Positions 1 through 29,373 of a DNA stretch of 64,000 bases are shown here, piece after piece. The translations under genes and the position numbers were made by a program. The notes under the pieces are model-generated. The model had not been told where the DNA came from. It made no database searches and was given only the letters and a program-made list of their open reading frames with translations. Position 1 is the stretch's first letter; each line of letters starts with the position of its first letter. The stretch lies in contig CP064989.1 in the NCBI GenBank assembly GCA_016699875.1, positions 10,631 to 74,630 on the forward strand, in the 5' to 3' direction. The stretch is from Candidatus Moraniibacteriota bacterium. Lineage in GTDB: Bacteria > Patescibacteriota > Minisyncoccia > Moranbacterales > UBA1568.

Positions 1-339
1 AAAACCGATCCGCTCTTGTTGGGACTTGTATCGCCGTTTCGTGCGTTCACAGGACACAAAGAGGCATGTGAGTCGGTGCCGGAAGGCGCGACGCTCTTGG
101 CGACATCGCCGACATGTCCGGTGCAGATGATTCGCGTGAAGCGCTCTGTATACGCGACGCAGTTTCATCCGGAGCTTGATCCGAAAGGTATTTGCGTGCG
201 TGTGGATGCGTACCGGCACCACGGTTACTTCGCACCCGAAGAGGCGGAGTCTCTCAAAGAGCGATGCCTCACCGAACAAGTAGTAGTTCCAATGGAAATT
301 CTTCGCCGTTTTGTCGAGCGGGCACGACAACTCTCGTAG
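1..339 (+). CDS. Class I glutamine amidotransferase-like protein, C-terminal fragment (5' end outside window)
   Basis: Open frame runs from position 1. Contains the '(Y)ATQFHPE' motif typical of the GATase-1 His/Glu region, followed by a C-terminal extension. No start codon inside the window. Confidence 0.45.
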   Translation, partial: KTDPLLLGLVSPFRAFTGHKEACESVPEGATLLATSPTCPVQMIRVKRSVYATQFHPELDPKGICVRVDAYRHHGYFAPEEAESLKERCLTEQVVVPMEILRRFVERARQLS

Positions 340-355
340 AGGGGTCTTGCAAAAT

Positions 356-3300: not shown

Positions 3301-5521
3301 CGCGAAAGGCGTCTTTTGTTTCTTGGAGAAGCGAGGCGTCCTCCGGCATCGTCTCGCTTGCGGCATCGGTGTAGTCGAGCAAAAGATAGTATGAAATCGC
3401 ACTGGTTGTATTGCTGAGATAGGCGGTTTCGAGTTTGCCAAGGAGTGCGGAAAGGGTGTGTCGGTCTTTGAGAAGTGCGGGGATAACGAAGACAGCCGAG
3501 GCGGATTCGGGAATTCGCCGCCGAAAATTGAGACGAGGGAGGAATGTCGGCGGGACAACTCCGACAAACAGGCTGTCTATGAGATGTTTCGACGCCTTGT
3601 AGAGAATGGGGAAGGCGATGATCATGAGAAATCGGTAGTGGAGATAAAACACGGCAAAGACGCTCGCCGTGAAAAGAGAGAGTGAGAATATGAATCCGAA
3701 ATAGGCAACACGTAGTGCGGGAAGTTTTCGACGATCGTGATACCAATGCCACCAGGACATGTGCGTGCTGCCGGTCAATCGCTTGAGGAGCGCTGGAAGT
3801 CCGTCATCGACAAGATAAAACCCGACATGGCGCTGCGGGTCGCTGCTGTCTTTGTGTTCCTCGGCGAGGGCGAGGGCGGCTCGCGTGAATGTTTCTTCGG
3901 AAAGTCGGAGCGTCTTTGCTATCGAAGCCGCTTTCTTTCGGTACATCTCTTGGGAAAGTGAGGTCATCTGTTCGTAGATATCGGCAGGGTCTCGAACAAG
4001 GAGTCGGTGAAGGGCATTGGTTTTCCGGAGGAGCGCATTCCACTCGAATTCTCCCAGGAGGGGGAGCGAACGAAGCAAAACGCGAACCCTAGTGGCAAGT
4101 TCGCGTAAACTTTTTGCTTCGGCAGTCCTTGAAAACGATTTTACCGGTCGCTCCTCGTTTTTCTTGGAAGATGTCTCGCGGAATCGAGAGAGGGGATACA
4201 CTTCCTTGGAACGGCATTCTTCAAACGCATCGGCGAAAGCGTCGGCACAGAGAGGCCCGCGCTTTCTCCGAAGCGTATCGAGTAGCGTGTGATAGCGGGA
4301 GGAATTTGGCCCGAATTTATTGAAGTGTTTTCGCGCCAGTGCGCGAGATTTTTCGACATCGGACAGTCGAATGGCGACGGTTGAAAGCTTATCAAGCGAA
4401 AGAAGTCGCAGGATCGGTGAGATCGCTTCTGTCTCGGCGAGTGAGAGTGAAAAAGCGGCGGACTCTTGCCAGTCATTGAGCGTGCTGGCCAGTGTCTCTT
4501 CCGAGAAGCGGAAGGCTGTTTTTTCAACATACCCATTGAGGAGATATGTTGCGGCTATAAGGTTGGCAGGTGCCGTTTCATCGAAAGATACTTTGGAAAG
4601 CGTTGCCTCGAGCGAGCGGAACTCCGCCGCGATAGCCGCATGCTTCTTGAGAAGCCACCGCGTTGCGAGCAGGAGAGTGTCGGGAGGAATTGAAAGCGAA
4701 GACGTACCGGTATCTTCTCGAGATCGATTAAGCCAGGAAGTGTGCTTTTGGTAGGGGGTGTAGAAAGAAGAGAAACGCCGGTGGATTTCCCGCACTTTCC
4801 GCGAGAGATGTCTCTCGATGACACGCTGCCCCCGTCGAAGCGAGAGACTGGAAATAGCGGTTTCCATGTGTTCTAACCACTTTTCAGTAGGGATTTCCGG
4901 ATGATAGTGTTGCCTAAAAAGGCGGGAAAGTAACATAGAGACGAAGAAATACCAGGGGAATACTAAGCAGAGTATAGCAGGAAAGAAGGAAAAATGGCTA
5001 TACTGCGGTCTCGGATGCGAGCCCCTTTCAAAAGCAGGGGATATGGTGTACAGTATGGAACGTTTGATGGGGTTCGGAGAGTTTAAAACGCGAGTTGAGA
5101 GGATATCCGTTTGCATTATCATATGGAGCTGTCGGCATCTCATAAAAAACCTTTTGTAAAGGTATGCGTGCATCGGGATTGTTGCGAGAAGGGATCGGAT
5201 CGTCTCTATGCGAAGCTCTCGCATGAAGTCTCGTCTGATGAGGCGGATATTCAGAAAACCGAGGACTGCTTTCGATTTTGCAAAAAAGGGCCGAATATCG
5301 CCGTTGATGGCAATGTCTTGCACCATATGAATGAGCGAAATGTGGTATCGCGCGTTCGATCTGAGATTCGGCGTCCTTCTTTCAAAAAGGACGGCATTGG
5401 CACGCGCCCCATAGATGAACTCGACGATGTGCTTGACAATATCGGTGTATAGTCTGTTGTTTGTTGTCCGGAGGATGTTCTTGGTATTGTTTTCCATTGA
5501 AACGTGATATACTAATCGCAA
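356..5521 (-). CDS. Cyclic beta-1,2-glucan synthase-like giant membrane protein (GT84-like glycosyltransferase + GH94-like domain)
   Basis: Single 1721-aa ORF. 'ITLDEDAF' (DXD-like) and 'NHRWTRGDWQ' (QxxRW-like) motifs sit between hydrophobic segments. Downstream are 'GHFYNWYHT', 'EYLMPALFLEE' and 'SESGY', which resemble the GH94 / cyclic glucan synthase (NdvB/Cgs) catalytic region. The start is uncertain; an alternative in-frame ATG lies 24 nt downstream. Confidence 0.6.
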   Translation of the reverse strand: MRLVYHVSMENNTKNILRTTNNRLYTDIVKHIVEFIYGARANAVLFERRTPNLRSNARYHISLIHMVQDIAINGDIRPFFAKSKAVLGFLNIRLIRRDFMRELRIETIRSLLATIPMHAYLYKRFFMRCRQLHMIMQTDILSTRVLNSPNPIKRSILYTISPAFERGSHPRPQYSHFSFFPAILCLVFPWYFFVSMLLSRLFRQHYHPEIPTEKWLEHMETAISSLSLRRGQRVIERHLSRKVREIHRRFSSFYTPYQKHTSWLNRSREDTGTSSLSIPPDTLLLATRWLLKKHAAIAAEFRSLEATLSKVSFDETAPANLIAATYLLNGYVEKTAFRFSEETLASTLNDWQESAAFSLSLAETEAISPILRLLSLDKLSTVAIRLSDVEKSRALARKHFNKFGPNSSRYHTLLDTLRRKRGPLCADAFADAFEECRSKEVYPLSRFRETSSKKNEERPVKSFSRTAEAKSLRELATRVRVLLRSLPLLGEFEWNALLRKTNALHRLLVRDPADIYEQMTSLSQEMYRKKAASIAKTLRLSEETFTRAALALAEEHKDSSDPQRHVGFYLVDDGLPALLKRLTGSTHMSWWHWYHDRRKLPALRVAYFGFIFSLSLFTASVFAVFYLHYRFLMIIAFPILYKASKHLIDSLFVGVVPPTFLPRLNFRRRIPESASAVFVIPALLKDRHTLSALLGKLETAYLSNTTSAISYYLLLDYTDAASETMPEDASLLQETKDAFRELNQRYGETDRFAFVIRSRAWSNRQGHWMGWERKRGKLLDFARALRGQATSSPFFISAKRLPHAEFIITLDEDAFITRDFIKDMLGIHSHPLQKPILNTNGELIRGYTFIQPHVKQWFKNRHRFRLPRIFFDEKRFSAYSTTFPEIYQDIFLEGSYAGKGSFHIDAFLSALDGALPTDQILSHDLLEGSLARTAYAADIDVFDEFPKSLRAMLARNHRWTRGDWQILDWLTPTVRDESGRVRKNTLAFVHRFKIADNLLQSLFRPAVFLITVLSWIVGNPHLLLFAWSIFLLDLFLLDMCIDWVRWSYQLLTGKWKHIGYRLKRTATRSFRLCRQAAFECITLPYAALDTTHAIITAISRRFISKKNMLEWVPSAHFENPAGRIPLLFPCITLLIVLLNFHTEGNIHPLFALLLVLWTGIPILVFLLNKPYKQAHDFSRQEEDGLRRDALETWSFFEQTVGPETHFLPPDYIRISPTPKTAEYTSITNIGFFLTSVLVAHRLGFISTKKAYASLERTCTSLERMERYQGHFYNWYHTKTALPAPPLFISSVDSGNLCAALIVTRQWLAHETTTLSVHRTEKGLHSMAQLIRDRIPKTLDMQSFSDIWETVISRIDTLPLNHEESSLFEQLRIIETSLIDIAIPKSLPEEVRDTLALLREQLRDTISEYQYHLSNKQTNVSSNTAGHTDNSHSDLIRKLDSIISEMRFDFLRSNKRSLISIGFHVPTKRLENRFYQTLASEARIANLLALAEGTLSFRGWNKLNRTVLPLRTGPALISWTGTLFEYLMPALFLEEHKDSLVGRSIQTAILMNRYSAKKKNIPAWGLSESGYAELDRGGNFRYKPFGLPALSLSPSADDRSVVSAYGIAMSISSFPRATLKNLAAYATYGGRGVYGYIEAIDFHRSRHGSPVNMFMSHHQGMILAAIGNCLSNRLLSRLFESHPLVQNSLFVLDEGIPPIDKEPFPRPAAPYLHTALSHPRTP

Positions 5522-5551
5522 TCGTTTGTTTTAATGATGGGTAACCGTACA

Positions 5552-5558
5552 AGGAGGG
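5552..5558 (+). promoter_or_regulatory. Shine-Dalgarno-like site (AAGGAGG) for the 5574 CDS. Lies in the 52-bp divergent gap between the giant gene and the small gene.
   Basis: 'caaggagggg' about 15 nt upstream of the ATG at 5574. Confidence 0.4.
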
Positions 5559-5573
5559 GTACACATCGCATGT

Positions 5574-6032
5574 ATGGCGGAAGAACCGGTGACGAATGAC
5601 GAATTGTCCGAAGAGGAGGATGTGCCTATGAAGAGTCTTGGGGATCGTGCGCGAGAGTTTCGAAACAGTCTTCAGAAAAGGTTTGCTGAGGGGAGCGCGT
5701 TGACGCTTGTTTTGTTGTTTGTGCTCGGATTGCTGTTTGGTGCGGCTGCGAAGGCCGTTGCATCGAGAAGTATTTTAATCGGATATTGGGACTATACTAT
5801 TACCCCCAAAGAACGGGCCGCTGTGAATTTGAATGCTCTCCAAGAAGAGCTGGCCGCTCGTCAGAAGGAGGCGGCGAAGCCGCAAAATGCGGAAGATGCG
5901 ACCGCATCGCAGCCGGAGGATTCCGGAGGCGAATCAGTCTCAGGCCAAAGCTCATCGGAAGAAGAGTTGCCGCCATTGCCACCAACGCCAGAACCGCCAG
6001 CTTCTCCATCTCCGGAGGCGGAAAAAGAATAA
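5574..6032 (+). CDS. Hypothetical single-pass membrane protein with an acidic N-terminus and a Pro/Ser/Glu-rich C-terminus
   Basis: 152-aa ORF with RBS. Contains one hydrophobic helix (LTLVLLFVLGLLFGAAA). The C-terminus is low complexity (PPLPPTPEPPASPSPEAEKE). Confidence 0.5.
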   Translation: MAEEPVTNDELSEEEDVPMKSLGDRAREFRNSLQKRFAEGSALTLVLLFVLGLLFGAAAKAVASRSILIGYWDYTITPKERAAVNLNALQEELAARQKEAAKPQNAEDATASQPEDSGGESVSGQSSSEEELPPLPPTPEPPASPSPEAEKE

Positions 6033-6073
6033 GATACGCCTCTTTTTTCAGTTTTCATTAATATCGGATACTA

Positions 6074-7218
6074 TGGATTTTCTGAATAAAAAAGAATCGA
6101 ATGAGAAGGATGATGATCTCGAGTTGTCGTTTCTTGGTGATACCTCAGAGGATGCCGGCGATATGCCGGAGGAAACAGATAAAAATCGCGAACTTACCAA
6201 GAAGGTAAAGAATCTTACGGCGCTTTTGGTAATTGTCGGCGGGCTCTTTGTCGGGAGTCTCTATGTGGATTTCTCGCAATTGTTCACGAAATCCGGATTT
6301 TCTTCGCGGGCACTGAAAACAACCGATGTGGTCACGGCAGCGGGAAAAACCTGGGTTGCCTATGATCAGCCGATTGTGCATGTAACGGTGCTTTCGGAAG
6401 AATCGTGCAAAGAGTGCCAGACCGATGAGGCGGTTGTCTGGCTTCGCCGGATTTTGCCAACCGTATCGGTTGAAATACTCGATGTTTCAAAGGATTCGAA
6501 GGCGAAGGACATGGCAAAAGCCGCCAATGTGACGGCGATACCCGCTTTTATTTTCTCCAAAGAAGTGGCGGAAGTCCCGGTATACGAGCAGGCGCAACAG
6601 CTTTTCACGCCACTCAACGACAAGGACGGCCGATATATGCTCGATACGGCACAGGTTGGTATTCCGGTGGGGAAGTATCTCGAATTGCCTGAGGTGAACG
6701 ATGCGGACATTCAGTCGGGCTCGAAGGATGCGCCGGTTCGTGTGGTGGAGTTTACCGATTTCCAGTGCCCCTACTGCAAAGCGTTCCACGCAACACTCCA
6801 AGATACGCTCAAAGAGTATGGAGACAAAGTACTCTATGTCTACAAGAACTACCCGCTTCCGATTCACGCGCAAGCGGAGAATGCCGCGCTTGCTGGCGAG
6901 TGTGCCAATGAGCAGGGAAAGTTCGTGGAGTATGCGGACAATCTTTTTAACAAACAAGACGAGTGGGGCAAGACAACCGGCGTGCAAAAATTCAAAGACT
7001 ATGCGCGGACACTCAAACTTGATACGACTCAGTTCAACACTTGCTTGGATGACAAGAAGTATCAGGACCAAGTGACTGCCAGTCTTGATGAGGGGAAGAA
7101 ATTTGGCATCAGCGGCACGCCGGGAACCTTTGTGAATGGCACCTTCTTGAATGGCGCCGTTCCTCAAAGCGATCTCAAAGCCGCTATCGACGCGGAGATT
7201 GCCAGTGCTTCGAAGTAG
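6074..7218 (+). CDS. Membrane-anchored thiol:disulfide oxidoreductase with tandem thioredoxin-fold (DsbA-like) domains
   Basis: Start trimmed to 'MDFLNKK'. The upstream Arg-rich extension is an out-of-frame shadow of the 5574 gene. Has an N-terminal TM helix. The first domain carries a CKEC motif and the second a canonical DsbA 'FQCPYCKAF' motif. Confidence 0.7.
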
Positions 7219-7339
7219 CTTGCGGCAGTCGTTTGCCTTTGGCTCTCGGGTCGTCCCGTTGCGGCGGGACGACCCTTGTCTTTTTCCTGTAAGCGAGATA
7301 CACTGAAATTCAGTTTTAGTGCTTCCATTAGGCACTTCC

Positions 7340-7410
7340 GGGCCTGTAGTAAAGTGGTATTACGCAGCATTCGCATTGCTGAGTCGGGAGTTCGATTCTC
7401 CCCAGGTCCA
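7340..7410 (+). tRNA. tRNA-Ala (anticodon CGC)
   Basis: Cloverleaf: acceptor GGGCCTG/CAGGTCC with the G3:U70 Ala identity pair, D-stem GTAA/TTAC, anticodon stem CAGCA/TGCTG with loop TTCGCAT, and T-arm GGGAG-TTCGATT-CTCCC. CCA is not encoded. Confidence 0.85.
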
Positions 7411-7418
7411 CAGCAATT

Positions 7419-8135
7419 ATGAATAGACCATATACAACCCTTTTTTTACTTGTTTCCGTAGACGGTAAGATTTCCACAGGTGATGTGGATGCTATGGATG
7501 TTGATAAGGACTATCCAGAGATTGAAGGTCTCAAAGAAGGTCTGAAACAATACTATGACCTAGAAATGGAGACAGATCTTTTTTCTTTTAATACGGGTCG
7601 GGTATTTGCAAAAGTTGGAGTAAATGAAAAAACGGATGAACCTGAAAAGTTACCAGTCAGTTTTGTTGTTCTAGATAACGAACCACACCTGATCGATAAA
7701 GGAGTTGTCTATCTTGCAAAGAAGACAAAAAACCTTATCATTGCTACTACTAATGAGGACCATCCTGCTTTTGCATTGAAAGATAGTTTTGAAAATATCC
7801 ACGTTCTAAAATATGAGAACAAAATAGATTTTCGCGACTTATTTGAAAAAATCAGAGAACAATTTGGTGCTGAGAGAATGACAATTCAATCAGGCGGTAC
7901 GCTCAATGCTACCTTAGTAAGGGAGGGGCTTATTGACCGAGTGTTATTGGTGGTTGCACCTGCTTTGGTTGGCGGGAAAGACACGGCGACCTTGATGGAC
8001 GGAGAATCTCTTCATAACACAAGCGATCTCGGGAAGATTGTTACATTGGAGTTGGCACAAGCAAAACCATTACAAAACTCATACTTGCTTCTAGAATATA
8101 AGGTGAGACCTAGAGAGTCCGAGCCTGCTCAATAG
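7419..8135 (+). CDS. RibD C-terminal domain-like (dihydrofolate-reductase-like) reductase
   Basis: 'LFLLVSVDGKIS', 'TLMDGESL' and 'LLLEYKV' fit the RibD_C/DHFR-like fold. Starts 9 nt after the tRNA. Markedly AT-rich compared with its surroundings. Confidence 0.6.
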   Translation: MNRPYTTLFLLVSVDGKISTGDVDAMDVDKDYPEIEGLKEGLKQYYDLEMETDLFSFNTGRVFAKVGVNEKTDEPEKLPVSFVVLDNEPHLIDKGVVYLAKKTKNLIIATTNEDHPAFALKDSFENIHVLKYENKIDFRDLFEKIREQFGAERMTIQSGGTLNATLVREGLIDRVLLVVAPALVGGKDTATLMDGESLHNTSDLGKIVTLELAQAKPLQNSYLLLEYKVRPRESEPAQ

Positions 8136-8247
8136 CTATCCCGAGTTCCTGCCAAGCCCGGAGTTCTGCTGTGATAGAGTTCCAACTGTGTAGGAGGTAG
8201 TCCCAAAGATATAAAAAAGATGCCCATACAAGCATCTTTTTTATATC

Positions 8248-8404
8248 TTTGTGGGATATTCTGAATGTAGCGCGGACCCATTTTGAGAAAAATTGCTGAC
8301 GCAATTTTGCCAAATCTCTGAAATCCGCTCGGGCGCGGCGGAAGGAGGGGGTTGGGGGGAGGAATTCCGCCGCGCCCTCGCTCCGAAAAAGTTTGCGCCG
8401 ACAA
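8248..8404. repeat. Left copy of a 157-bp near-perfect inverted repeat pair (partner at 10358-10514). Carries an internal 13-bp-stem hairpin.
   Basis: ORFs 8129-8416(-) and 10358-10597(+) translate to the same 53 residues with one A/V difference, so the DNA copies are reverse complements with one mismatch. Inside is the palindrome gggcgcggcggaa...ttccgccgcgccc with a G-rich loop on this strand (ggagggggttggggggagg). Confidence 0.85.
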
Positions 8405-8449
8405 TTGCAAAAACAAATTCGATTAAATCTTAGCTGAAATAATTTACTT

Positions 8450-9187
8450 GGCTCTAGACTATCAGATTCACTCTGTATAGTCTGGAATTATGTATAACTA
8501 CGCCAAAATATCAACATACAAAATCGGAAAAATAATTTCACACTTTTGCGTTGATGTTACTGCTTCCAAAACCGCTGTCCTGTTGGACATGAATCGCAAT
8601 GCGATCAACCATTGGTATGGTATCTTTCGCAGAGCGATCTATGTTCATCAGACGAAAGAATGCAAGAAAATATTCGGTGAAGCAGAGCTAGATGAGAGTT
8701 ACTTTGGAGCTCGAAGAAAGCGCGGATACCATGGAAAACTCAAGCGAGGACGAGGAACATTCAAGCAACCGGTGTTTGGTATTCTGAAACGTAACGGACG
8801 GGTATACACTGAGATCATACCAAACTGTAAGAAAGCAACACTTTTGCCCATCATCAGGGGAAAAGTCGATCCATCGACGGTTATCTATTCCGATGGTTGG
8901 AGAGGATATGACGGACTGGTTGATGTAGGGTATGACAAACACTTCAGAATGAATCACGGTGAGAATGAGTTTGCCAAGAGAGGCACTGGAATTCACATCA
9001 ACGGGATTGAAAACTTCTGGAGCTTTACCAAACGAAGACTCTCAAAGTTCAATGGGGTCAAAACTCATTTTGAACTCCATCTCAAGGACTGCGAATGGCG
9101 GTATGGGAAGGAAGTCGCGGTACTTGAGACAGAGTTGAAAAGAATAGTTCGACGGTATTTGAATTGTTAAAGTGATAGTCTAGAGCC
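8450..9187 (+). mobile_element. IS1595-family insertion sequence (about 738 bp) with 15-bp perfect terminal inverted repeats GGCTCTAGACTATCA
   Basis: IRL at 8450-8464 and IRR at 9173-9187 (reverse complement). They bracket a single ISXO2-like DDE transposase ORF. No convincing target-site duplication was seen. Confidence 0.75.
8490..9170 (+). CDS. IS1595-family (ISXO2-like) DDE transposase
   Basis: 'DESYFGARRKRGYHGKLKRGRGTFKQPVFGILKRNGRVYTEIIPN', 'IYSDGWRGYDGL', 'HFRMNHGENEFAKRGTGIHINGIENFWSFTKRRL' and 'ELHLKDCEWRY' match the DDE_Tnp_IS1595 domain. No N-terminal zinc ribbon is present. Confidence 0.85.
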   Translation: MYNYAKISTYKIGKIISHFCVDVTASKTAVLLDMNRNAINHWYGIFRRAIYVHQTKECKKIFGEAELDESYFGARRKRGYHGKLKRGRGTFKQPVFGILKRNGRVYTEIIPNCKKATLLPIIRGKVDPSTVIYSDGWRGYDGLVDVGYDKHFRMNHGENEFAKRGTGIHINGIENFWSFTKRRLSKFNGVKTHFELHLKDCEWRYGKEVAVLETELKRIVRRYLNC

Positions 9188-9290
9188 TTTGTTTTTACAA
9201 TCAATCGTTCTTTGAATTTATGAAAAAGAAAAACGCACCAGAGGTCCGAAGACATGGCGCGTTGGTTGGGAAACGAGAGAAGTTGGCGGG

Positions 9291-10049
9291 TTAGGCAGTG
9301 AGGTCGGTGAGGACCTTGCCCCAGTCCTTCCGCTCGTGCACCGTAGTGTCGTGCGTCCCTTTGCCATTGCAGACGTGGCACGGTTTCGAATGCTCGGCGT
9401 CCTCTTTGGCATGGGGGCACTTCCCCTTGGCGTCCAACGGGGTTCGGCAGTAGCCGCAAGCGGTTCCACCGACGCAGTTGTAACACTCGACGCCGAGCGC
9501 CGGATCCTCCACAAACGGCGTGTGCACGAACATGACACGAGCGCCGTTGACCACGAAGTTGGGCTTGAAGCCGTGGTAGTACGCATCGCCGATATGGTCG
9601 ATGGCCGCGCTCATGGCACCCTGATGGTGATTGGTTTCCGTGACCATAGCCACGAACTTGGCGCCACACAGAGTCGCCTTGAGTGCGATGATGAAGCCGT
9701 AGGGCACCTGCTCGCCAGAGTTGAAAACTCCGGGGGCGAGTGTTTTCCTGCTCATCGGCATCATCATGTCCGTCAACACCACCTCGAACGGAAAGGGAAT
9801 TACCGACATGGCTCCCGCCTCGTCGTGAGCCTTCCAGTAAGCGCTCCACCGCTCCTTGTCCTTGGAGTCCGGCATCGTCGGGAAACCTGCCTCGACGAGA
9901 AGACGCTGAACGTTGTCCTTGTCGATCTTCTGCGACATGAGTTCCATCGCCTCGTCGAACGACTTGACGATGGTGAGCTCGTGCGCAGAAAGGGTTTCCT
10001 TGGCCGACTCGCGGTGAGACTGCTTGTCCTCGATAACCAGAATACGCAT
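9291..10049 (-). CDS. GC-rich passenger gene: atypical CheY-like receiver-fold protein with a C-terminal Cys-rich (4x CxxC-like) zinc-ribbon-like region
   Basis: 'MRILVIEDKQ' start is preceded by AAAGGAG 7 nt upstream. Contains 'VVLTDMMMP' (Asp-x-x-M-P phospho-acceptor-like) and 'CYNCVGGTACGYCRTPLDAKGKCPHAKEDAEHSKPCHVCNGKG'. GC is about 58%, against an AT-rich IS next door. Confidence 0.5.
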   Translation of the reverse strand: MRILVIEDKQSHRESAKETLSAHELTIVKSFDEAMELMSQKIDKDNVQRLLVEAGFPTMPDSKDKERWSAYWKAHDEAGAMSVIPFPFEVVLTDMMMPMSRKTLAPGVFNSGEQVPYGFIIALKATLCGAKFVAMVTETNHHQGAMSAAIDHIGDAYYHGFKPNFVVNGARVMFVHTPFVEDPALGVECYNCVGGTACGYCRTPLDAKGKCPHAKEDAEHSKPCHVCNGKGTHDTTVHERKDWGKVLTDLTA

Positions 10050-10095
10050 GGTAATTCTCCTTTCAGTTTGGTTCGTTTGATTTCGCCTACCCACA

Positions 10096-10140
10096 ATGAG
10101 TAGCGCACTAAATACCCAATTTAGACGTCCAATGCGCTAC
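10096..10140. promoter_or_regulatory. Palindromic candidate operator upstream of the GC-rich passenger gene
   Basis: 'gagtagcgcac' ... 'gtgcgctactc'-type inverted repeat (tgagtagcgcact / caatgcgctactcac) in the 5' region of the minus-strand gene. Confidence 0.3.
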
Positions 10141-10357
10141 TCACAGAGTAAGTAAGGAGAATTAACCGCTTCTTTTCTCTCGCTTATCAAAGAGCTATTT
10201 TCGCTAATTTTGGAGGAAGTATACCACCTCAAATTTCGCGTTAAGTGTAGCGTATTGTGTCTATTCTGTCAAGCCCAAACGCTATAATCAAAACTATGCC
10301 CAAAAACCAACAAAAAAAGCCCTTATTTCAAGGACAATTTCATATCTTCTTATTTGG

Positions 10358-10514
10358 TTGTCGGCGCAAACTTTTTCGGAGCGAGGGCGCGGCGGAATTC
10401 CTCCCCCCAACCCCCTCCTTCCGCCGCGCCCGAGCGGATTTCAGAGATTTGGCAAAATTGCGTCAGTAATTTTTCTCAAAATGGGTCCGCGCTACATTCA
10501 GAATATCCCACAAA
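10358..10514. repeat. Right copy of the 157-bp inverted repeat pair. Internal hairpin at about 10385-10431 with a C-rich loop on this strand.
   Basis: Reverse complement of 8248-8404 with one mismatch (gcaatt vs gtaatt). Both ends diverge sharply from the left copy outside the repeat. Confidence 0.85.
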
Positions 10515-10655
10515 ACACAAATTTTGAGGCTTTTCATAGCCTCTTTTTTGTATTGACACCGAGTCTAAAAAGGTGTACAATAATATGTTGTAAGTAAGAG
10601 CTTGCGACTGCCTCGATTCCCGGCATCCAGGGGATTTTCTTTGAAAAAGGAGATG

Positions 10656-11213
10656 GCGATGACGATTCAGTCGATCACGCAAGGCCAAGCAAATCAGAAG
10701 AAGCCCAGATCGCATTACCCGGTGCTTGCTGAAACCAGGCTCCTCAAACCTGTCGGCAAGTCAACTGTTCCAGTCAGGACGAATCCCTTCAATGCAGAAA
10801 AGTTCTACCAGACCGGCACCGGCCTTTACGTCTACGGCATGTTCCCAGGTCGCCTCAACTTGAGTTTTAGGCAGACAGTGGATTCGGCTCCCGAACGTCC
10901 CTACGTGGCTTTGCTCCTCAAGGAAAACGCCTACGACAGGAACATCCGCAAGAAACTGCCGGACATGCACCTGTCCACACTGGAAGACATCGCAGGCCTC
11001 ATTGAAGCACAGCCGGGCGGCAAGCCGGGCTTCCTGCTAAACAACGGCTACGCGAACATCTTCTACGTCGAGGAAAACAGTGAAGTCTTCGTCGTGGATG
11101 TCGGCTGGAAATTCGACCGCTGCGAGTGGGGCGTCGACGGCTGGAAGCTCGGCGAGGCTGGCCGCTGGCGCGTTGACACGCAGGTTCTCTGCCCAAGCAA
11201 CGCGGCGCTCTGA
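10656..11213 (+). CDS. Hypothetical protein (GC-rich, no recognisable domain)
   Basis: Start at 'MAMTIQS' with GGAG 8 nt upstream. About 55% GC. Followed by a hairpin plus T-run. Confidence 0.5.
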   Translation, partial: AMTIQSITQGQANQKKPRSHYPVLAETRLLKPVGKSTVPVRTNPFNAEKFYQTGTGLYVYGMFPGRLNLSFRQTVDSAPERPYVALLLKENAYDRNIRKKLPDMHLSTLEDIAGLIEAQPGGKPGFLLNNGYANIFYVEENSEVFVVDVGWKFDRCEWGVDGWKLGEAGRWRVDTQVLCPSNAAL

Positions 11214-11253
11214 CACCTTTTTAGTTCATTTGAACAAAAGACTTTTGTCTATT

Positions 11254-11300
11254 AAACCCTTGGAAGCTACAGTGTAACAACCAAGGGTTTTTTGTCTTTT
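11254..11300 (+). terminator. Rho-independent terminator candidate
   Basis: aaacccttgg-(17 nt loop)-ccaagggttt followed by ttttgtcttttttt. Confidence 0.5.
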
Positions 11301-11331
11301 TTTGTCTTGCCGAAAATAGGTACCAGAGAAG

Positions 11332-11544
11332 TCAGAACAAAATCTTTCCAATTGCGAAAAAAGCGATAATGGCCCAGAGAACATTCAGCACGCCTGGCTG
11401 ATATGTCTTCTTATGGAAGGAGATGGCGACGATACCGAGTGCGCCTGTTCCATTGAGAAGCTGGTACACAATACTCGTTGGTGTCAGGAATGAGAAACTT
11501 ATCAGGGCATAGGCGAGAGAATGATGGAGACTGTTCCGTACCAA
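11332..11544 (-). CDS. Small hydrophobic membrane protein, possibly one gene interrupted by a frameshift with an upstream 24-codon ORF
   Basis: The 70-aa ORF (TTG start) is almost entirely hydrophobic. An ATG ORF 'MNKDRLIALFGWYGTVSIILSPMP*' begins at 11579 in another frame and overlaps it. Confidence 0.3.
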   Translation of the reverse strand: MVRNSLHHSLAYALISFSFLTPTSIVYQLLNGTGALGIVAISFHKKTYQPGVLNVLWAIIAFFAIGKILF

Positions 11545-11579
11545 CCGAAAAGCGCAATGAGTCTATCTTTATTCATAGA

Positions 11580-11984
11580 TCAATCAATGAGATCTTTTGA
11601 TTTCAGATCATCGAAGATGAGTTGATCCACGGGCGATATCTCATTTCGTCTCGAGGAGTCAAACCAATCCATTTGTTCCACTTCAGCACTGGGCGCAAGC
11701 TTCCCTGAGTATTTTCCTTGGTAGCAAGTCATTCTTACGAGAGTTCCTTCCGGTTTTCCGTGAGCTTGTGCCTCAAAGGTTCCGTAGTGCTTGAGAGTTT
11801 CGGGAATGATGTCGATCTGCAGCTCCTCTTTCATTTCTCGCATCAGAGCTTCTTGATCGCTTTCATTATTCTCGCGTTTTCCTCCCGGAATGTACCAAGC
11901 GTCTTTTCCATAACTACGCGTCTCCAAGACTCTCCGGTTAAGAATTTCAATAAAGGCCAGTTTGTCGATGTATGTTGTTTCCAT
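11580..11984 (-). CDS. NUDIX hydrolase
   Basis: Nudix box 'GGKRENNESDQEALMREMKEELQI' (GX5EX7REUXEEXGU). Confidence 0.85.
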   Translation of the reverse strand: METTYIDKLAFIEILNRRVLETRSYGKDAWYIPGGKRENNESDQEALMREMKEELQIDIIPETLKHYGTFEAQAHGKPEGTLVRMTCYQGKYSGKLAPSAEVEQMDWFDSSRRNEISPVDQLIFDDLKSKDLID

Positions 11985-12017
11985 ATATATTGCATCTAAT
12001 GAGGAATGAGGGATGCT

Positions 12018-13721
12018 TTAAGAATCACTCCTCTCAGTTTCCGAGAGGAGAGCGTCTTTGTTTGCATCTTCAGAGAAAGTGACGGAATCTTTGGCGAAGC
12101 CGCTTGCTTGCATGTCTATGTTGTGTGAATCGGCTCCGGAGATCGTGAGACAGTCTTTGCGGACGAGAGGGCACTTGGTGTTTATGAACGAGAGATTGGC
12201 GCCATCCTTGATATCGAAGACCGTGCCCTTGGTGGGGACGGCAGTAACTCTGTCAAAAGTGATATATTCCGCCTTTTCTATTTGAGCGCCCCATTTCGAG
12301 GAAATTTTGACGTTCTTGAAAACAACGTCAATAATCGGCTGTTCCACGAGCCCGTTGATTTCTATTGAGCGATCGGTTTTCCCGACAGACATATCTTCGA
12401 TGGCGATGTTGCGAAAGAGGGGGATAGCGCCGCGGCCTTTGATAAAGGAGTTTTCATAGGCGGTTGTGAGTTGTACCGCAGCTATGGAGGCGTAGTCGAT
12501 ATTCACTATATTGGCGTGGATATTTTCTACGATTCCGCCGCGGCCCTTTGAGGACTTGATGCGGAACCCATACTGAACCATATTTGCGGAAAGGTTTTCA
12601 ATGAAAATATTGCGCACATCGCCGGACATCTCGCTCCCGATGGCGACAGCGGCATGCGCTTCGAGTATGGAATTATTTCTGATTAAGACATTTTCCGTTG
12701 GTTCTCGAACACGGAGACCGTCACTATTTCTTCCTGACTTGAGGACAATGGCATCATCGCCGGTACTGAAAACGTTATCCTCAATAAGGACATTTATTGA
12801 AGAGTCGAGTGCTACGCCATCGGTGCTTGGTCCGGCACTGGTCTCAATATGAACACCGCGAACAATGATATGTGTACTGTAGAGCGGATGAATCGTCCAC
12901 ATGGGACCGTTTTGTATGGTGACGCCCTCGACGAGTACGCGGTGGCAATTCATAAATTCGATGAATGCCGGGCGAAGAGCGTCTGCGACGGTTCCGAAAA
13001 CGCGCTCGGACACGGGTACATCGTCGTCGCCCATTCGGTAGAGATTTTTGATAGACTTGTTCCAGTCACGCATCGCTTCCCACCAAACGGCGCCTTGTCC
13101 ATCGAGCGTGCCTTCACCCGTAATGGCAACATTGAAAGCATTGGCAGTATAGATAGGAGCGGAATAGTTGTAATATTCAATGCCCTCGAAGCGAGAGAAA
13201 ACGACCGGCAGATACTCTTCAAAGTTCGTGCTGAAAAGAATGGTCGATCCCTTTTCGAGGTGAAGATTGATATTGCTTTTGAGATGTATCGCTCCGGTGA
13301 ACCAGGTGCCTTTGGGAACTTGGACGGTCCCGCCTCCGGTACTGGCGCAGTCCTCTATCGCTTTCCGAAACGCTTCAGTATCGGAGGTGATGCCATCACC
13401 CTTCGCACCGTAGTCGGCGATGGAACAAACTCTGTCCGGAAAACCCGTTTCCTCAATACTGAGCGAGCCACCGGAAAGTGTCTGAAGTGTGGCAATCGAT
13501 GTTGCCAGCGGAATGGATTGCGATATATCCGGGAATTCCCGAGGGATTTCCGGTTCGGTCGGCAGTGTTTCTTCGGGAGAAGCTTCTCTCGTAAAATCCT
13601 GTGATGATGAGAATATTGTTCGTATCCGGTCTCCGAACAGTTTCCAACCTCCAAGGATAACTCCGACAATGCAGAGAGCAAAAAGGAGGAGAAGAATGGC
13701 TGTTCGACGCTGCTGAATCAT
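12018..13721 (-). CDS. Membrane-anchored right-handed beta-helix glycoside hydrolase (GH28 / pectate-lyase-3 family)
   Basis: N-terminal TM helix. 'DYGAKGDGITSDTEAFRKAIEDCASTGGGTVQVPKGTWFTGAIHLKSNINLHL' is the hallmark of the Pectate_lyase_3/GH28 beta-helix. Paralogous to 23682-25217. Confidence 0.75.
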   Translation of the reverse strand: MIQQRRTAILLLLFALCIVGVILGGWKLFGDRIRTIFSSSQDFTREASPEETLPTEPEIPREFPDISQSIPLATSIATLQTLSGGSLSIEETGFPDRVCSIADYGAKGDGITSDTEAFRKAIEDCASTGGGTVQVPKGTWFTGAIHLKSNINLHLEKGSTILFSTNFEEYLPVVFSRFEGIEYYNYSAPIYTANAFNVAITGEGTLDGQGAVWWEAMRDWNKSIKNLYRMGDDDVPVSERVFGTVADALRPAFIEFMNCHRVLVEGVTIQNGPMWTIHPLYSTHIIVRGVHIETSAGPSTDGVALDSSINVLIEDNVFSTGDDAIVLKSGRNSDGLRVREPTENVLIRNNSILEAHAAVAIGSEMSGDVRNIFIENLSANMVQYGFRIKSSKGRGGIVENIHANIVNIDYASIAAVQLTTAYENSFIKGRGAIPLFRNIAIEDMSVGKTDRSIEINGLVEQPIIDVVFKNVKISSKWGAQIEKAEYITFDRVTAVPTKGTVFDIKDGANLSFINTKCPLVRKDCLTISGADSHNIDMQASGFAKDSVTFSEDANKDALLSETERSDS

Positions 13722-13737
13722 GGCGGACGAGAGTTAT

Positions 13738-15597
13738 TTATTCCGAGGATGGGTTTCCTAAAAGGAGTTGCTCGGCGGGAATCACTTTCACAAAATTTTC
13801 CGGGCGATTGCCGATAACGAACGTCTTTGAGGTCTCTTCGGTTGCATATGCTTTTTTGAAATCAATAGGATCGCTGCCGGGGTGAGAAAGCTTTGTGGTT
13901 CTGGATCGACGCCCGGACGAGACTACGACATAGTCAAAATGGAGATCTCGCAAATCTTTCTGACTGAGTCCGGTGCGGCACTCCCCGATAAAGACGGCGC
14001 AGACAGCCCCCTTATCCGCCCATATGGAGATTTCGCGGGGATTTGGCAGGTGGTTGAGAAAGTCGGCGGCTTCCCAACTTCCATCGCCCATATCCTTCAA
14101 ATTGACGAAATAGGGTTCCGGAAGAAGAGATGATGTGTAGGCGAAATAGTACGGCTTGACGGAGAAAAGGCTGATGAATGAAAGAAGTGCCACCGCTGAT
14201 ATTGCGGCAAGGGAGGTGTGGGAATGCTTACGAAGGCGTTCGGACTTGAGAAGAAAAGCAATGCCAAGAGCAGCTAGAATAAAAGCGAAAGGGAAGATGG
14301 TTATTTGGTAGCGTATGGTGGCAACTACGTGATTGACGGTTGACGCGACGTAGTAGAGAAGGATAAAGAGCGTGATAAAGAAAGCTATTTTTGTTTCTTG
14401 TGACGTTATATACTTTTTTGTTGAGCCAAAAACAAGCGCTACAACCAGAGTAATAAGCGCAAACGGCGAAATGCCGAACATAAGACTATATAAATCGGCA
14501 ACGACAGTGTCGGTAAAAATATACAAGCGTGAGCTGTCTCCTCCGGAGCCTTTCGGAGAGGCAAGCGAGGCATCGGTATTGAAGAGACTCATGCCGTTGA
14601 GCGTATTCAGTAAGACGAAAAGAATAGCAGCAATAAAGAATATGAAAACCATTCGAATAAAAAGTATTCGATATCGTGAGAGGGTGTGCAAAATAGCGGC
14701 AGTAAATTTGTTCTTGAATAAAACAGCGTCGAGCGCAATAAGCGCAATGATGCTTGCAAAAAGCGGCCAGGTGCTCTCGAAAGCCTTGCTAAGGAATGTC
14801 CCTTCGAAGACCATTTCCGGATGCTTCCATGTCGCAGGGAAAAGCGCAAAGAATGTCGCCAGAGAGATGCTCACCAAGATGAGGTAATGAAGAGCTGATT
14901 GTCTTATGTAGGTTCGAAGATCCGGTTTTTCCTGAGAGAGGATGTACTCCAAAAAGGGAAGTGCGAAGAAGAATATATAGAGAATATTGGCGACGTATTT
15001 GGTAAGAAGAGAGAGTCCGAGGAGCACTCCGCTTGCATAGAGGTACTTTTTTTCAGCGCTTTTCTGGAAAACAAAATAGCTCAGTGTCGAGAGCGGAAGA
15101 AATATCCAGAGAAGCGAGTCGGGGTTGATAATGAGCGAGATTCCGAGGAGGATCGGTGAGAATCCTATAAAAACAAAGGCGATGAGAGCGGTCGTTTCAT
15201 CGAAGAGTTTTTTAAGAAGAATGAAAAAGAATGGGAGAGAGAGGAGACAAAAAAGAAAAATGGGCAGACGGAAGAAGAAGTTGATATCATTTATGGCTTG
15301 AAACTCTTCATCGGTTTTTACGTTATCGCGCAGACCCTTGTAGGGAAGGGGGTCTATTGTAAGAAGTCCGGCGCCGGAGAGGATTGCGGTCGTGATGCCG
15401 GGTTTGTCATTGATATTGGTGGATCGCCATTTTCCTTCGGCGATCGCCTTCCAAAACTTCGGTGTTCGCTGGTATGTCCAGTAGGGCTCATCAACTGCCG
15501 AATACGACTCGAGACGCGACAGTCCGAGCGCTAAGTTTATGGCAAGTACGGCAACGATAACAAGCGGCGCGAAGCACTTTCGGCAATTGAGTTTCAT
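13738..15597 (-). CDS. GT-C fold membrane glycosyltransferase (GT39/GT83, ArnT/PMT-like) with canonical DE motif
   Basis: More than 10 predicted TM helices. First loop reads 'SAVDEPYWTY'. Has a C-terminal soluble domain. Diverges from the neighbouring paralog at 15722. Confidence 0.7.
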   Translation of the reverse strand: MKLNCRKCFAPLVIVAVLAINLALGLSRLESYSAVDEPYWTYQRTPKFWKAIAEGKWRSTNINDKPGITTAILSGAGLLTIDPLPYKGLRDNVKTDEEFQAINDINFFFRLPIFLFCLLSLPFFFILLKKLFDETTALIAFVFIGFSPILLGISLIINPDSLLWIFLPLSTLSYFVFQKSAEKKYLYASGVLLGLSLLTKYVANILYIFFFALPFLEYILSQEKPDLRTYIRQSALHYLILVSISLATFFALFPATWKHPEMVFEGTFLSKAFESTWPLFASIIALIALDAVLFKNKFTAAILHTLSRYRILFIRMVFIFFIAAILFVLLNTLNGMSLFNTDASLASPKGSGGDSSRLYIFTDTVVADLYSLMFGISPFALITLVVALVFGSTKKYITSQETKIAFFITLFILLYYVASTVNHVVATIRYQITIFPFAFILAALGIAFLLKSERLRKHSHTSLAAISAVALLSFISLFSVKPYYFAYTSSLLPEPYFVNLKDMGDGSWEAADFLNHLPNPREISIWADKGAVCAVFIGECRTGLSQKDLRDLHFDYVVVSSGRRSRTTKLSHPGSDPIDFKKAYATEETSKTFVIGNRPENFVKVIPAEQLLLGNPSSE

Positions 15598-17512: not shown

Positions 17513-17521
17513 ATCGAGAAT

Positions 17522-19174: not shown

Positions 19175-19274
19175 GCGGTTATTGTCATCGCTGCTGATAC
19201 AGAGAGTTGAATTTGATATTCGCCAAACGGTACATGGGTAACGCAGGTCATTCACCACGAGCCTTTCTCTGACT

Positions 19275-20852: not shown

Positions 20853-20903
20853 CGAAATTCCAAGCGTCAAGCGTATTGTCTCTATCTCATTTAGCGAGCA
20901 GTT

Positions 20904-21602: not shown

Positions 21603-21652
21603 AAATTTTCGCAATGATGAGAAGTTGAACGAGTTATTTTTTTGAAAGTGAT

Positions 21653-23272: not shown

Positions 23273-23329
23273 TATTTTAGGATGTTCCACCATGGAAGCG
23301 CACGTGCTTTCCCGACTAAAAACGGAATG

Positions 23330-23650
23330 TGTCTCCGGTATCGCTCGCTTTTTCGTTTCAATGCGAACAGCACTCATTCTAGTGGGGATTACATGCGTTG
23401 GAATATGGAATTCCATATCGGACCGATTACACACTACTTCTCGTTTCTTTCGGGGTTAATCCTCGGTTGGACGCCGGCAGCGCTGGCGTACCCGGATCTT
23501 TTGTTTTCCGTGCTCACCATTCCATTGATGTATGTACTCATTGCGAAGATGTTTGGCAGAAACATGGCATTGGTCTTTCCAACGGCAATATCCGGATTCA
23601 TTGTAATAACCGAAATTAATGATCAAGAAATCATAAATCGCATTGCAAGT
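23330..23650 (+). pseudogene. Decayed internal fragment of a further GT-C paralog
   Basis: 'MEFHIGPITHYFSFLSGLILGWTPAALAYPDLLFSVLTIPLMYVLIAKMF' aligns to the 'LGPVYYYFQ...LAYPDLLFSILTIPLAFFLF' block of the paralogs. It lacks the N-terminal DQARD region and everything after the equivalent of TM4, and is only 136 codons in ORF context. Confidence 0.5.
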
Positions 23651-29280: not shown

Positions 29281-29373
29281 AATACTCACTGAAAAATTAT
29301 CAAAATACTATATGGAGGAGAAAGAGGGAAAAAGCGAGCAGATAGTGTCACGTTCTATTCTTTCCCAAGCCAG

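Follow-up and report, generated by a model that had tools for sequence, protein, structure and literature searches.

Inverted copies of a structured Patescibacteria repeat around unrelated genes point to an undescribed form of gene packaging

Several ways of packaging bacterial genes or small repeats between recognizable boundary sequences have been described. Each cassette of an integron has one attC at its 3' end (R''/L''-L'/R' cores), all cassettes share the same orientation, and the enzyme is a tyrosine integrase, IntI. REP sequences are about 20-40 nt long, number in the hundreds per genome and are associated with RAYTs; in REPINs, inverted REP doublets enclose tens of bases, not genes. 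Classical invertons of the Hin/Gin type have 10-30-bp inverted repeats and part a promoter from its gene. A mic is defined by inverted repeats on its two sides and by the lack of a transposase gene in its vicinity; the ends of MICs and MITEs are short (about 20-50 bp) and imperfect, come from known IS, and are usually accompanied by a target-site duplication (PMC3913671). The pdif modules of Acinetobacter have inversely oriented sites and are found in different contexts, with neither transposase nor target duplication, and a host-type site-specific recombinase is presumed to act on them; in a pdif site, which is 28 bp long, a 6-bp spacer separates two inverted arms of 11 bp (PMC6449649). Long repeats can also recombine with each other: ectopic recombination between the long terminal inverted repeats of an IS has been reported (PMC3004938).

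The block considered here comes from a Candidatus Moraniibacteriota bacterium and lies in a 64-kb stretch of DNA, the whole of which is referred to as the window. A sequence-only reading had described 157-bp inverted repeats 1.95 kb apart with a one-base difference, and an inverted-repeat search confirms them: two arms of 157 nt each, at 8248-8404 and 10358-10514, are separated by 1953 nt and are complementary at 156/157 positions (99%). The sole mismatch, G8295 versus the complement of T10467, falls within a small AT hairpin. The left arm (8248..8404, + strand) is one copy of a repeat unit with its box end facing outward, to the left; its parts, defined by repeat search, folding, family alignment and covariation, are a terminal box (~8252-8287), the AT hairpin (8289-8308), a GC hairpin (8331-8377) and an inner end, ...GTTTGCGCCGACAA. 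The right arm (10358..10514, - strand) is the second copy, inverted and identical at 156/157 positions (the difference being at 10467), with its box end outward, to the right, and its GC hairpin at 10385-10431. In each arm the GC hairpin spans 47 nt, with a 13-bp stem (GGGCGCGGCGGAA/TTCCGCCGCGCCC) and a 21-nt purine-rich loop, as had been claimed; folding the C-rich strand of the unit returns exactly this stem-loop. The hairpin occurs exactly twice in the window, at 8331-8377 (+) and 10385-10431 (-), and is absent from 100 dinucleotide shuffles; sequence searches of the rest of the 64 kb yield no third copy of the unit or of any of its modules. Both arms carry a private substitution, GCGCGG.

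Alignment identifies the two arms as copies of one member of a Patescibacteria-wide, modular, hairpin-rich repeat family, and demonstrates that this family exists and is conserved across Patescibacteria classes. The sequence-only reading had suggested a search for further copies, and these are indeed found in other genomes and metagenomes (none more in the window): approximately 25 other Patescibacteria loci, from Saccharibacteria, Vogelbacteria, unclassified MAGs and metagenomes, have the family. Full-length homologues of the unit at 67-97% identity were confirmed with blastn and nhmmer; units of different loci are 54-97% identical. (A technical note on probes: an exact 20-mer from the terminal box matches 5 other Patescibacteria MAGs and 19 metagenome contigs; L004, from Hormoscilla, and L017 were rejected as family members because they are chance 20-mer matches; a 27-mer taken from the unit's variable middle part matched nothing in a metagenome scan; a protein search with the unit's spurious ORF gave three matches, two of them useful.) The plan common to the units begins with a nearly invariant terminal box of ~35 nt, (T)GGGATATTCTGAATGTAGCGCGAACCCATTTTGAG; an AT hairpin may or may not follow, and then come a GC hairpin whose loop is rich in purines and an inner end that varies. 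Double compensatory changes in 4/12 GC-hairpin pairs and 4/10 AT-hairpin pairs of the family alignment show that these hairpins have been maintained through compensatory change; the GC hairpin is 96% paired in the family versus ~50% when its partner is slid. The further proposal that the loop is G-quadruplex-capable has little support: two-tetrad arrangements are possible, but the G-tract pattern is not kept across the family, and some members (L013, L021, L036) have the loop the other way round, on the C-rich strand.

Neither papers nor Rfam, nor plasmid and phage records, gave a match to the unit. PLSDB, INPHARED and IMG/VR contain no match to it, and a phage or plasmid origin is rejected on that basis (the lone IMG/VR match, L001, was to the bare hairpin pattern and reflects a chance likeness between GC-rich sequences). 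Other identities for the unit have also been considered and rejected: 1) a promoter or leader element, since its orientation to neighbouring genes is mixed and no sigma-70-like site lies within it; 2) a tRNA mimic, since no cloverleaf is apparent by eye in the reverse strand ending ...CCCACCA and ARAGORN found nothing there; 3) Tn7-like ends (TGTGGG... terminus, 5-bp duplication), since there is no 5-bp duplication and TGT is not conserved; 4) a Xer/dif-like site, since the box has no dyad.

What do the arms enclose? The cargo gene, IPK84_00120 (9291..10049, - strand), encodes a protein of 252 aa with a weak CheY-like receiver signature and a Cys-rich C-terminal region. At 59.2% GC versus a window mean of 48.0% it is the most GC-rich gene-sized segment, at the 99.8th percentile of same-sized windows; as a candidate defence gene it has no PADLOC or NCBIfam match, and its homologues elsewhere stand in ordinary contexts, with no units. 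The block between the arms is probably imported DNA. Upstream of the gene, an AT-rich leader/promoter region (10050..10357, -) contains a predicted sigma-70-like promoter (10272-10244); a hairpin with a T-run (10335-10319), which lies in this region close to the inner edge of the right arm, resembles a terminator and would stop inward transcription. Downstream lie a conserved spacer and intrinsic terminator (9202..9290, -), with a stem-loop at 9233-9262 followed by a minus-strand U-run. The predicted cargo transcript begins and ends between the arms, so that both are excluded from the mRNA, which suggests that the arms act at the level of DNA.

The remainder of the interior is taken up by a third hairpin and an interruption of it. 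Hairpin 3 has its 5' arm and loop at 8404..8449 (+; ATTGCAAAAACAAAT...) and its 3' arm at 9188..9201 (+; TTTGTTTTTACAAT); between them lies an IS1595-family insertion sequence of 738 bp (8450..9187, +; inverted repeats 8450-8471/9166-9187, the first 15 nt perfect) with its transposase gene at 8490-9170 (Pfam PF12762, E=1.6e-26; NCBIfam NF033547, 149.7 bits, cutoff 75). The IS is flanked by TTTACTT and TTTGTTT, possibly a decayed 7-bp target duplication. The hairpin 3 module comes next after the unit in L009, L010, L014, L018, L019 and L034; in the window the conserved sequence of the left copy extends past 8404 into it, and the left module therefore reaches to ~9290. At L034 the left-end module (unit, hairpin 3, terminator) is found at 85-97% identity beside a different ORF; the spacer/terminator at 9202-9290 is 85% identical to its L034 counterpart, and homology stops at the stop codon. 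In all, the left-end module is seen in three contexts (the window, L034 and L019), and because its homologues in L034 and L019 are free of the IS, the comparison shows the IS1595 element to be a later insertion into the hairpin 3 loop. The view that the arms are distinct from IS1595 terminal repeats is borne out: the IS has separate inverted repeats of its own (GGCTCTAGACTATCA...), with no similarity to the arms or the box, and together with the IS-free homologues this leads us to reject the arms as IS1595 ends or as a derived MITE.

Outside the left arm, at 8204..8251, a perfect 20-bp hairpin, the terminator of the RibD_C gene at 7419-8135, abuts the box and shares its final 4 nt with the inverted repeat as reported. 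On the right, native DNA (10522..10653, +) contains a terminator hairpin (10526-10543) and a promoter (10553-10581), and within it lies the 5' UTR of the conserved Moranbacteria gene IPK84_00125. The segment 10522-10653 aligns to the region upstream of the IPK84_00125 homologue in L033, and the alignment shows native DNA resuming no more than 7 nt beyond the right arm. No empty site for the block was found, the homologues of the downstream gene being distant (61-73% identity) and without conserved gene order. The suggestion that the arms are the ends of a larger composite element consequently survives in part: they mark the ends of a foreign block, with native sequence within 7 nt of the right one, but the IS was no part of the original design.

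A search for the unit beside other cargo had also been suggested, and boxes-outward pairs with unrelated cargo inside are present at three further loci: L003 (arms of 154 nt, 100% identical, enclosing an SSF symporter gene), L035, from Vogelbacteria (arms of 153 nt, 99% identical, enclosing a 3-gene ABC-transporter operon) and L024 (mosaic arms enclosing an unknown ORF). Arm identity within the pair is 99-100% in 3/4 pairs (the window, L003, L035), and all 4/4 are boxes-outward, for which the chance under random orientation is ~0.004. In L003, L024 and L035 the arms lie no more than 26 nt from the start and stop codons of the cargo, or overlap them. Both arms of a pair end at an identical inner point, which indicates that a single discrete unit, defined at either end, is present twice; the two L035 arms have a private substitution, GAACCTAGCGCGAACAC, in common. 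Direct repeats of 2-10 bp at the outer ends are absent, on reading the sequence, from the window, L003 and L035, and the lack of a target-site duplication argues against ordinary DDE transposition. Genes for large serine recombinases stand beside the L003 pair, themselves inside long inverted repeats, one of them divergently upstream; homologues of these enzymes, or of an IS110 transposase also seen in related loci, are lacking in the window. About 35 related loci include no autonomous element with these ends, and among the loci compared no identical arm-cargo-arm block occupies two genomic contexts. (A separate note on arm identity: near-identity of the two arms is equally explicable by a recent in-situ inverted duplication.)

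The reading that we favour, with a rough probability of 0.45, is that the window block is a non-autonomous gene cassette bounded by inverted repeats, its arms kept identical by recombination. The arms, boxes outward, would be the terminal inverted repeats of a ~2.27-kb cassette lodged between two native terminator hairpins. The cassette would be complete for expression, comprising an insulating terminator, a promoter and leader, the GC-rich receiver-like gene with its terminator, and hairpin 3; the IS1595 element was inserted into it later. It may have been gained or exchanged whole via its ends: a putative enzyme supplied in trans would read the box and leave no target duplication, a site-specific recombinase being one option; alternatively, once DNA had been taken up, the 150-nt arms might have served host homologous recombination. 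Exchange between the two arms, through recombination or gene conversion, would hold them at 99-100% identity, and could also invert the block.

Such a cassette is like MICs (MIC231, mic-qnrD) and MITE-bounded composites (IMUs, TIME-COMPs) in having variable cargo between inverted repeats with no transposase of its own, mobilisation in trans being presumed; the only transposase inside the window pair belongs to a separate IS with different ends. It is unlike them in that no flanking direct target-site duplication is found in the window, L003 or L035, and in that the arms are ~150 nt long, 99-100% identical within the pair, provided with covarying hairpins, and without a match to any known IS end. 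A MITE-like structured repeat, one of the explanations first offered, holds good as far as a structured dispersed family is concerned, but a classical MITE is disfavoured by the want of a target-site duplication in any pair, and by a single unit having no terminal inverted repeats of its own. Like pdif/dif modules, these are discrete gene modules bounded by inverted sites, with no transposase and no target duplication; unlike pdif, the box offers no dyad better than 7/11 (P=0.34 vs shuffles), its arms exceed a pdif site fivefold in length, and the host replicon is the chromosome of a CPR bacterium. The units share with REP/REPIN the character of hairpin-forming intergenic repeats, single or in inverted doublets, and may like them be recognised as DNA structures, but the unit is ~150 nt long, is present in two copies in the 64-kb window, and no RAYT is seen there. 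The apparently promoterless ORFs that are flush with hairpin-forming boundaries in L003, L024 and L035, and the L003 recombinase gene divergently upstream, recall integron cassettes; in contrast to these, identical inverted boundaries are present at both ends, the enzymes neighbouring L003 are large serine recombinases, and no attC core or attI has been identified. Lastly, DNA between inverted repeats is able to flip, as in invertible segments, but the window cargo, unlike that of classical invertons, has its predicted promoter inside the segment.

Might the unit rather than the cassette be what moves? It could be a small REP/MITE-like mobile repeat that copies itself and lands beside stem-loops, box towards the stem-loop; the arms would then be two separate insertions from one active master copy on the inner sides of neighbouring terminator hairpins, and the cassette would be incidental. 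(A variant, one-step duplicative inversion from a single resident unit, is rejected: the shifted inverted target copy that it predicts is absent from the window and L003 sequences.) Units do exist singly and in both orientations relative to neighbouring genes: about five loci with at least 1.9 kb of inner sequence (L008, L013, L018, L021, L025) have a single unit with no partner, and the GC-rich cassette of L014 is bordered by a unit at one side and not at the other, so that pairing is not obligatory. The identical inner end of both arms of a pair also fits a discrete mobile unit, as does the composition of the left end: in L034 and L019 hairpin 3 and the terminator accompany the left unit, while the right arm is without them. 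A hairpin or long palindrome lies within ~15 nt outside the box in ~17/27 copies, both window arms included, and the outer-flank MFE is below that of shuffles (P=0.016); compared with nearby control windows, however, the association of the box end with hairpins is suggestive and not significant (P=0.18), and only two copies occur in 64 kb. The uniformly outward boxes of the four pairs speak against independent landings, and so does the closeness of arms to cargo codons in L003, L024 and L035, where two independent insertions would likely harm expression; a single unit, moreover, has no terminal inverted repeats, and no target duplication was found. Autonomous movement of the unit is on balance unlikely, if a serious contender.

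On an improbable reading, the segment undergoes programmed inversion (phase variation), with the arms as its recombination sites and either RecA or a dedicated invertase doing the flipping. Certainly 157 nt at 99% identity is ample for homologous recombination; the contrast between arms at 99-100% in three pairs and units at 54-97% between loci suggests ongoing exchange, the mosaic arms of L024 resemble partial conversion, and L003 has its serine recombinase genes enclosed by long inverted repeats. What would flipping accomplish? The sequence-only reading had envisaged a switch turning the gene relative to flanking promoters, but this has no obvious logic here: the predicted promoter and terminator of the cargo lie inside the arms and terminators insulate both arms, so that a flip would not part the gene from its promoter. 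In addition, a recombinase homologue was not found in the window, single units cannot invert, and known invertons have short inverted repeats.

A role for the unit as structured RNA is more improbable still, whether as an sRNA whose C-rich loop resembles an anti-Shine-Dalgarno sequence or as 5'/3' UTR elements that pair into a processing stem. The covarying hairpins would suit it, as would the C-rich strand, which folds better than shuffles (z=-2.46) and has CCUCC motifs in its loop, and a canonical terminator stands downstream of the right copy on the plus strand; but that terminator is native, being conserved in L033 where there is no unit. Rfam models at gathering and permissive thresholds bring only tRNAs to threshold in the window and 8 related loci, no conserved promoter lies in or beside the unit, orientation to genes is mixed, the loop is flipped in L013, L021 and L036, G.U-type mismatches occur on either strand (L003 vs L035), and neither arm is part of the cargo mRNA as predicted. 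An assembly artefact, in which the inverted duplication is chimeric or wrongly joined in the MAG, can be practically discounted: many related contigs end at the unit (L006, L007, L009, L023-L026), and assemblers are known to be misled by inverted repeats that exceed the k-mer in length, but three unrelated data sets (L003, L024, L035) yielded this architecture in separate assemblies, one base distinguishes the two arms, the inner segment makes sense as a gene equipped with its promoter and terminator, and the flanks are ordinary.

If the pairing of units were only incidental, the family would still be an unreported structured repeat with clear covariation. One can carry the cassette reading further, and suppose a dedicated Patescibacteria system in which structured boundary repeats bracket exchangeable ORFs and operons, at tRNA-gene hot spots that accumulate long palindromes (the tRNA 3' end included) and large serine recombinase genes in palindrome apices; it would parallel integrons and pdif modules, but with other sites, other enzymes and homogenised inverted arms. 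We offer this as a speculation, with the odds well against it. The Patescibacteria/CPR have tiny genomes and are mostly uncultured, and their routes of gene acquisition and exchange are little known. For this repeat family no earlier description was found, and its pairing around different genes points to an undescribed way in which these bacteria package, and probably move, genes. Its units recur in different classes of the group, the inverted pairs that enclose unrelated genes are perfectly homogenised and in many cases directly adjoin the ORFs, and the family clusters next to genes for tRNAs and serine recombinases. Such cassettes and their recombinase could be sought by means of the invariant box, which might also serve to mark assembly breaks in CPR MAGs. 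If the reading is true, the cassettes would be a new vehicle of horizontal gene flow for a large fraction of bacterial diversity.

The inverted repeats noticed at 8248-8404 (plus strand) and 10358-10514 (minus strand) are as the sequence-only reading described them: 157 nt long, 99% complementary, 1953 nt apart, different at one base (8295 versus 10467), and each furnished with a 13-bp GC stem closing a 21-nt loop, which dominates the fold of the C-rich strand. The window contains exactly two instances of the 47-nt GC hairpin (none in 100 shuffles), and sensitive searches of the 64 kb detected no additional copies of the repeat unit or its sub-modules. (Direct-repeat families of 50-74 nt, 60-95% identical and spaced 0.76-3.9 kb apart, lie at 16149-23523 and 46771-47601; these probably represent stretches conserved among tandem paralogous genes.) We favor, at a probability of about 0.45, the interpretation that the two arms bound a non-autonomous cassette with cargo, serve as its terminal inverted repeats, and come from a repeat family specific to Patescibacteria.

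On the outer left, the terminal "box" of the unit borders directly on a 20-bp hairpin, the terminator of the RibD_C gene. On the outer right, positions 10522-10653, comprising a terminator hairpin and the promoter and 5' UTR of IPK84_00125, a conserved Moranbacteria gene (promoter and terminator being consensus predictions), align with sequence upstream of the IPK84_00125 homologue at L033, one of the loci compared here (L-numbers) in MAGs and metagenome contigs; native DNA therefore resumes at most 7 nt past the right arm. The 5' UTR (10602-10653) contains a hairpin at 10615-10636 (GATTCCCGG...CCAGGGGATT) that is kept together with the promoter in the 73%-identical L033 homologue (counterpart at about 2490-2540) and may be a cis-regulatory leader. 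In another Moranbacteria genome (L031/L032), an RVT_1 reverse-transcriptase gene (8498-9589) sits some 800 nt downstream from the IPK84_00125 homologue and interrupts a suf operon region. Some 20 kb from the element, the cumulative GC skew of the window passes through a maximum (about 29000-33000) and then declines, and so marks a strand-composition switch: either a terminus or origin of replication, or a point where gene orientation changes.

The unit is not confined to this genome: homologues turned up in other Patescibacteria MAGs and in metagenome contigs. The census was made with a single exact 20-mer from the outer end of the unit, GGGATATTCTGAATGTAGCG, and consequently under-samples other box variants; within the GTDB species representatives it picked up five other Patescibacteria MAGs (three of Saccharibacteria, one listed as "Patescibacteria group", one unclassified), and beyond these 19 metagenome contigs. 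Two more loci were gained by protein search with the unit's spurious ORF, and L004 and L017 were discarded as chance 20-mer matches. Full-length homologues, confirmed with blastn and nhmmer, are 67-97% identical to the window copies. The unit has no match in Rfam, IMG/VR, PLSDB or INPHARED, and no earlier description of the family was found in the literature searched.

Aligned, the units resolve into a near-invariant terminal box of ~35 nt, (T)GGGATATTCTGAATGTAGCGCGAACCCATTTTGAG, with a second variant in L024b and L022b; an optional AT hairpin; the GC hairpin; and a variable inner end. Across the alignment, pairing in the GC hairpin is 96%; double changes affect 4 of its 12 pairs and 4 of the 10 pairs in the AT hairpin. 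Pairing over the structure as a whole is 92% but falls to 47-56% on sliding the 3' partners, and none of 500 shuffles matches the observed covariation. Compensatory change in the aligned sequences thus shows these hairpins to be maintained. In what capacity? G.U-type mismatches fall on either strand (L003 versus L035), the hairpin loop is on the opposite strand in L013, L021 and L036, and orientation relative to neighboring genes is mixed; the structure is therefore read as acting at the level of DNA and not of RNA. The GC hairpin with its poly-C/poly-G loop also appears alone in other repeat mosaics, beside XRE-type HTH genes (L036, 40-110; L003, 5860-5900), so that sub-modules evidently reassort.

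That the unit might flank other cargo also proved correct. In L003 (MAG WY2.bin82), 154-nt arms (2290-2443/3813-3966, 100% identical) enclose a sodium:solute symporter gene (2456-3799); in L035 (Ca. Vogelbacteria), 153-nt arms (3390-3542/6038-6190, 99% identical) enclose a three-gene ABC-transporter operon; in L024, mosaic arms (74-234/about 1403-1540), about 95% alike over the inner ~83 nt with two different box variants outside, enclose an unknown ORF. In these three, cargo ORFs and arms either overlap slightly, by a few bases, or are separated by at most 26 nt. The boxes face outward in all four pairs, the window's included. Private substitutions are common to both arms of a pair (GCGCGG in the window, GAACCTAGCGCGAACAC in L035), while unit identity between loci ranges from 54 to 97%. 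The outer ends of the window, L003 and L035 pairs, read directly, bear no direct target duplication. Beside the L013 unit (1-14113), blocks of 0.5-1.5 kb with about 33-38% GC take turns with blocks of 53-55%, a pattern that suggests a patchwork of genes with different origins. In L026, an IS110-family IS (31-1591; 421-aa transposase at 107-1369, minus strand, DEDD-type by sequence pattern) splits a unit directly after the terminal box, the remainder resuming from about 1592.

A doubtful though still serious competitor is that the unit alone is mobile, landing beside stem-loops with fixed polarity or duplicating in inversion, the pair being a by-product. Single units do exist: about five loci (L008, L013, L018, L021, L025) have only one despite enough inner sequence, and a GC-rich cassette in L014 has a unit at one side only. 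(Contigs often end at a unit, the expected outcome when short reads are assembled across a repeat or an inverted pair.) Just beyond the box, about 17 of 27 copies also have a hairpin or long palindrome, but compared with local controls this association falls short of significance; the uniformly outward boxes tell against independent landings, and flush ORF boundaries would be hard to get from two separate hits.

The cargo gene (IPK84_00120, a hypothetical protein of this MAG on a contig of 1.09 Mb; 9291-10049, minus strand) has 59.2% GC against 48.0 +/- 3.8% in windows of the same size (99.8th percentile). Domain search gives its product a weak receiver-domain signal, and by eye it appears to have an acceptor-Asp motif (...VVLTDMMMP...) and a Cys-rich tail; homologues 63-66% identical in other genomes reside in ordinary contexts without the unit. 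The left copy extends past 8404 into hairpin 3 (ATTGCAAAAACAAAT ... ATTTGTTTTTGCAAT), which the right arm does not have, and then a spacer and terminator module reaching the cargo stop codon. The block of unit, hairpin 3 and terminator recurs in L019 and in L034, where the unit is 97% and the terminator module 85% identical; in L034 it follows a different ORF, and homology stops exactly at the stop codon. An IS1595-family element with its own inverted repeats does lie between the arms as claimed (8450-9187; transposase Pfam E=1.6e-26; NCBIfam 149.7 bits, cutoff 75). Both L034 and L019 versions are without it, and it was therefore inserted later, into the loop of hairpin 3. Its flanks, TTTACTT (8443-8449) and TTTGTTT (9188-9194), match at 5 of 7 positions and are probably a decayed 7-bp target duplication, because the IS-free homologues have one TTTGTTT. 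If so, their divergence (2 of 7, against 1 of 157 for the arms) is a weak hint of arm homogenization.

Inward of the right arm come a terminator-like hairpin with T-run (10335-10319), a sigma-70-like promoter (10272-10244), a ~190-nt leader, the cargo and its intrinsic terminator (9262-9233 plus U-run, minus strand), the promoter and terminators again being consensus predictions. The leader has a 10-bp inverted repeat, GAGTAGCGCA...TGCGCTACTC, at 10085-10160 (minus strand), upstream of the ribosome-binding site. On these predictions the cargo transcript stays entirely between the arms, which speaks against the suggestion that inversion flips the cargo relative to flanking promoters; a programmed switch with the arms as inversion sites is accordingly improbable. 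The same prediction speaks against the arms pairing as UTRs, and that the unit works as an RNA is more improbable again. We give almost no credence to an assembly artefact.

Several members of the family sit near tRNA genes. The box abuts one shared long palindrome at six loci or more (L002, L003, L022, L024, L025, L035); in L002, L003 and L022 this palindrome starts in the tRNA-Ala 3' end (...CCACCA) and ends with its reverse complement, an arrangement seen for two isoacceptors, GGC and CGC. Long palindromes directly follow tRNA-Ala (GGC, CGC) and tRNA-Lys in L022 (4294-4438, 430-532; arms of 50-56 nt) and L002 (about 1497-1613); they take in the tRNA 3' end, (C)CACCA, together with an inverted copy of it, and each is adjoined at its far end by a unit. 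The apex of the tRNA-Ala palindrome in L003 is occupied by a large serine recombinase gene, and a second such gene lies in an analogous structure after tRNA-Ser (both Resolvase+Recombinase+Zn_ribbon_recom): the enclosing repeats (604-735/2162-2293 and 4096-4217/5617-5738) are near-perfect, 122-132 nt long, and run from within the tRNA 3' ends (Ala-GGC, Ser-TGA) to the reverse complement of these. The outer part of the first occurs as an "empty" palindrome after tRNA-Ala in L002 and L022; in L008 a truncated recombinase separates tRNA-Ala from a unit. The window's tRNA-Ala(CGC) precedes the pair by 840 nt (region 7340-7419); it ends at 7411 with CCA not encoded, and the RibD_C-domain gene begins 8 nt on. 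tRNA-Ala is a neighbor of the family in several other genomes. Taken together, these features are a hint of a tRNA-anchored cassette platform, a reading that is conceivable if on balance unlikely.

Functionally, the closest analogues are mobile insertion cassettes (MICs) and MITE-bounded composites, and the pdif modules of Acinetobacter. MICs are bracketed by inverted repeats and lack a transposase, target duplication being usual (PMC3913671), whereas the window element has no target duplication, and no parent IS with such ends turned up in about 35 related loci; pdif modules are flanked by Xer sites of 28 bp in inverse orientation (PMC6449649), whereas the box has no dif-like dyad. REP/REPIN elements differ from the unit in length and in copy number (two in the 64 kb), and integron cassettes in polarity, attC and IntI being absent here. 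As each of these departs from the element in a tested defining feature, no named family is assigned, and the element is filed as an inverted-repeat-bounded non-autonomous cassette, a variant outside every named family. Such a cassette would be moved or exchanged through its ends by a trans-acting enzyme that leaves no duplication or, by an alternative route, through homologous recombination on its 150-nt arms following DNA uptake; recombination between the arms would homogenize them, and would permit inversion as well.
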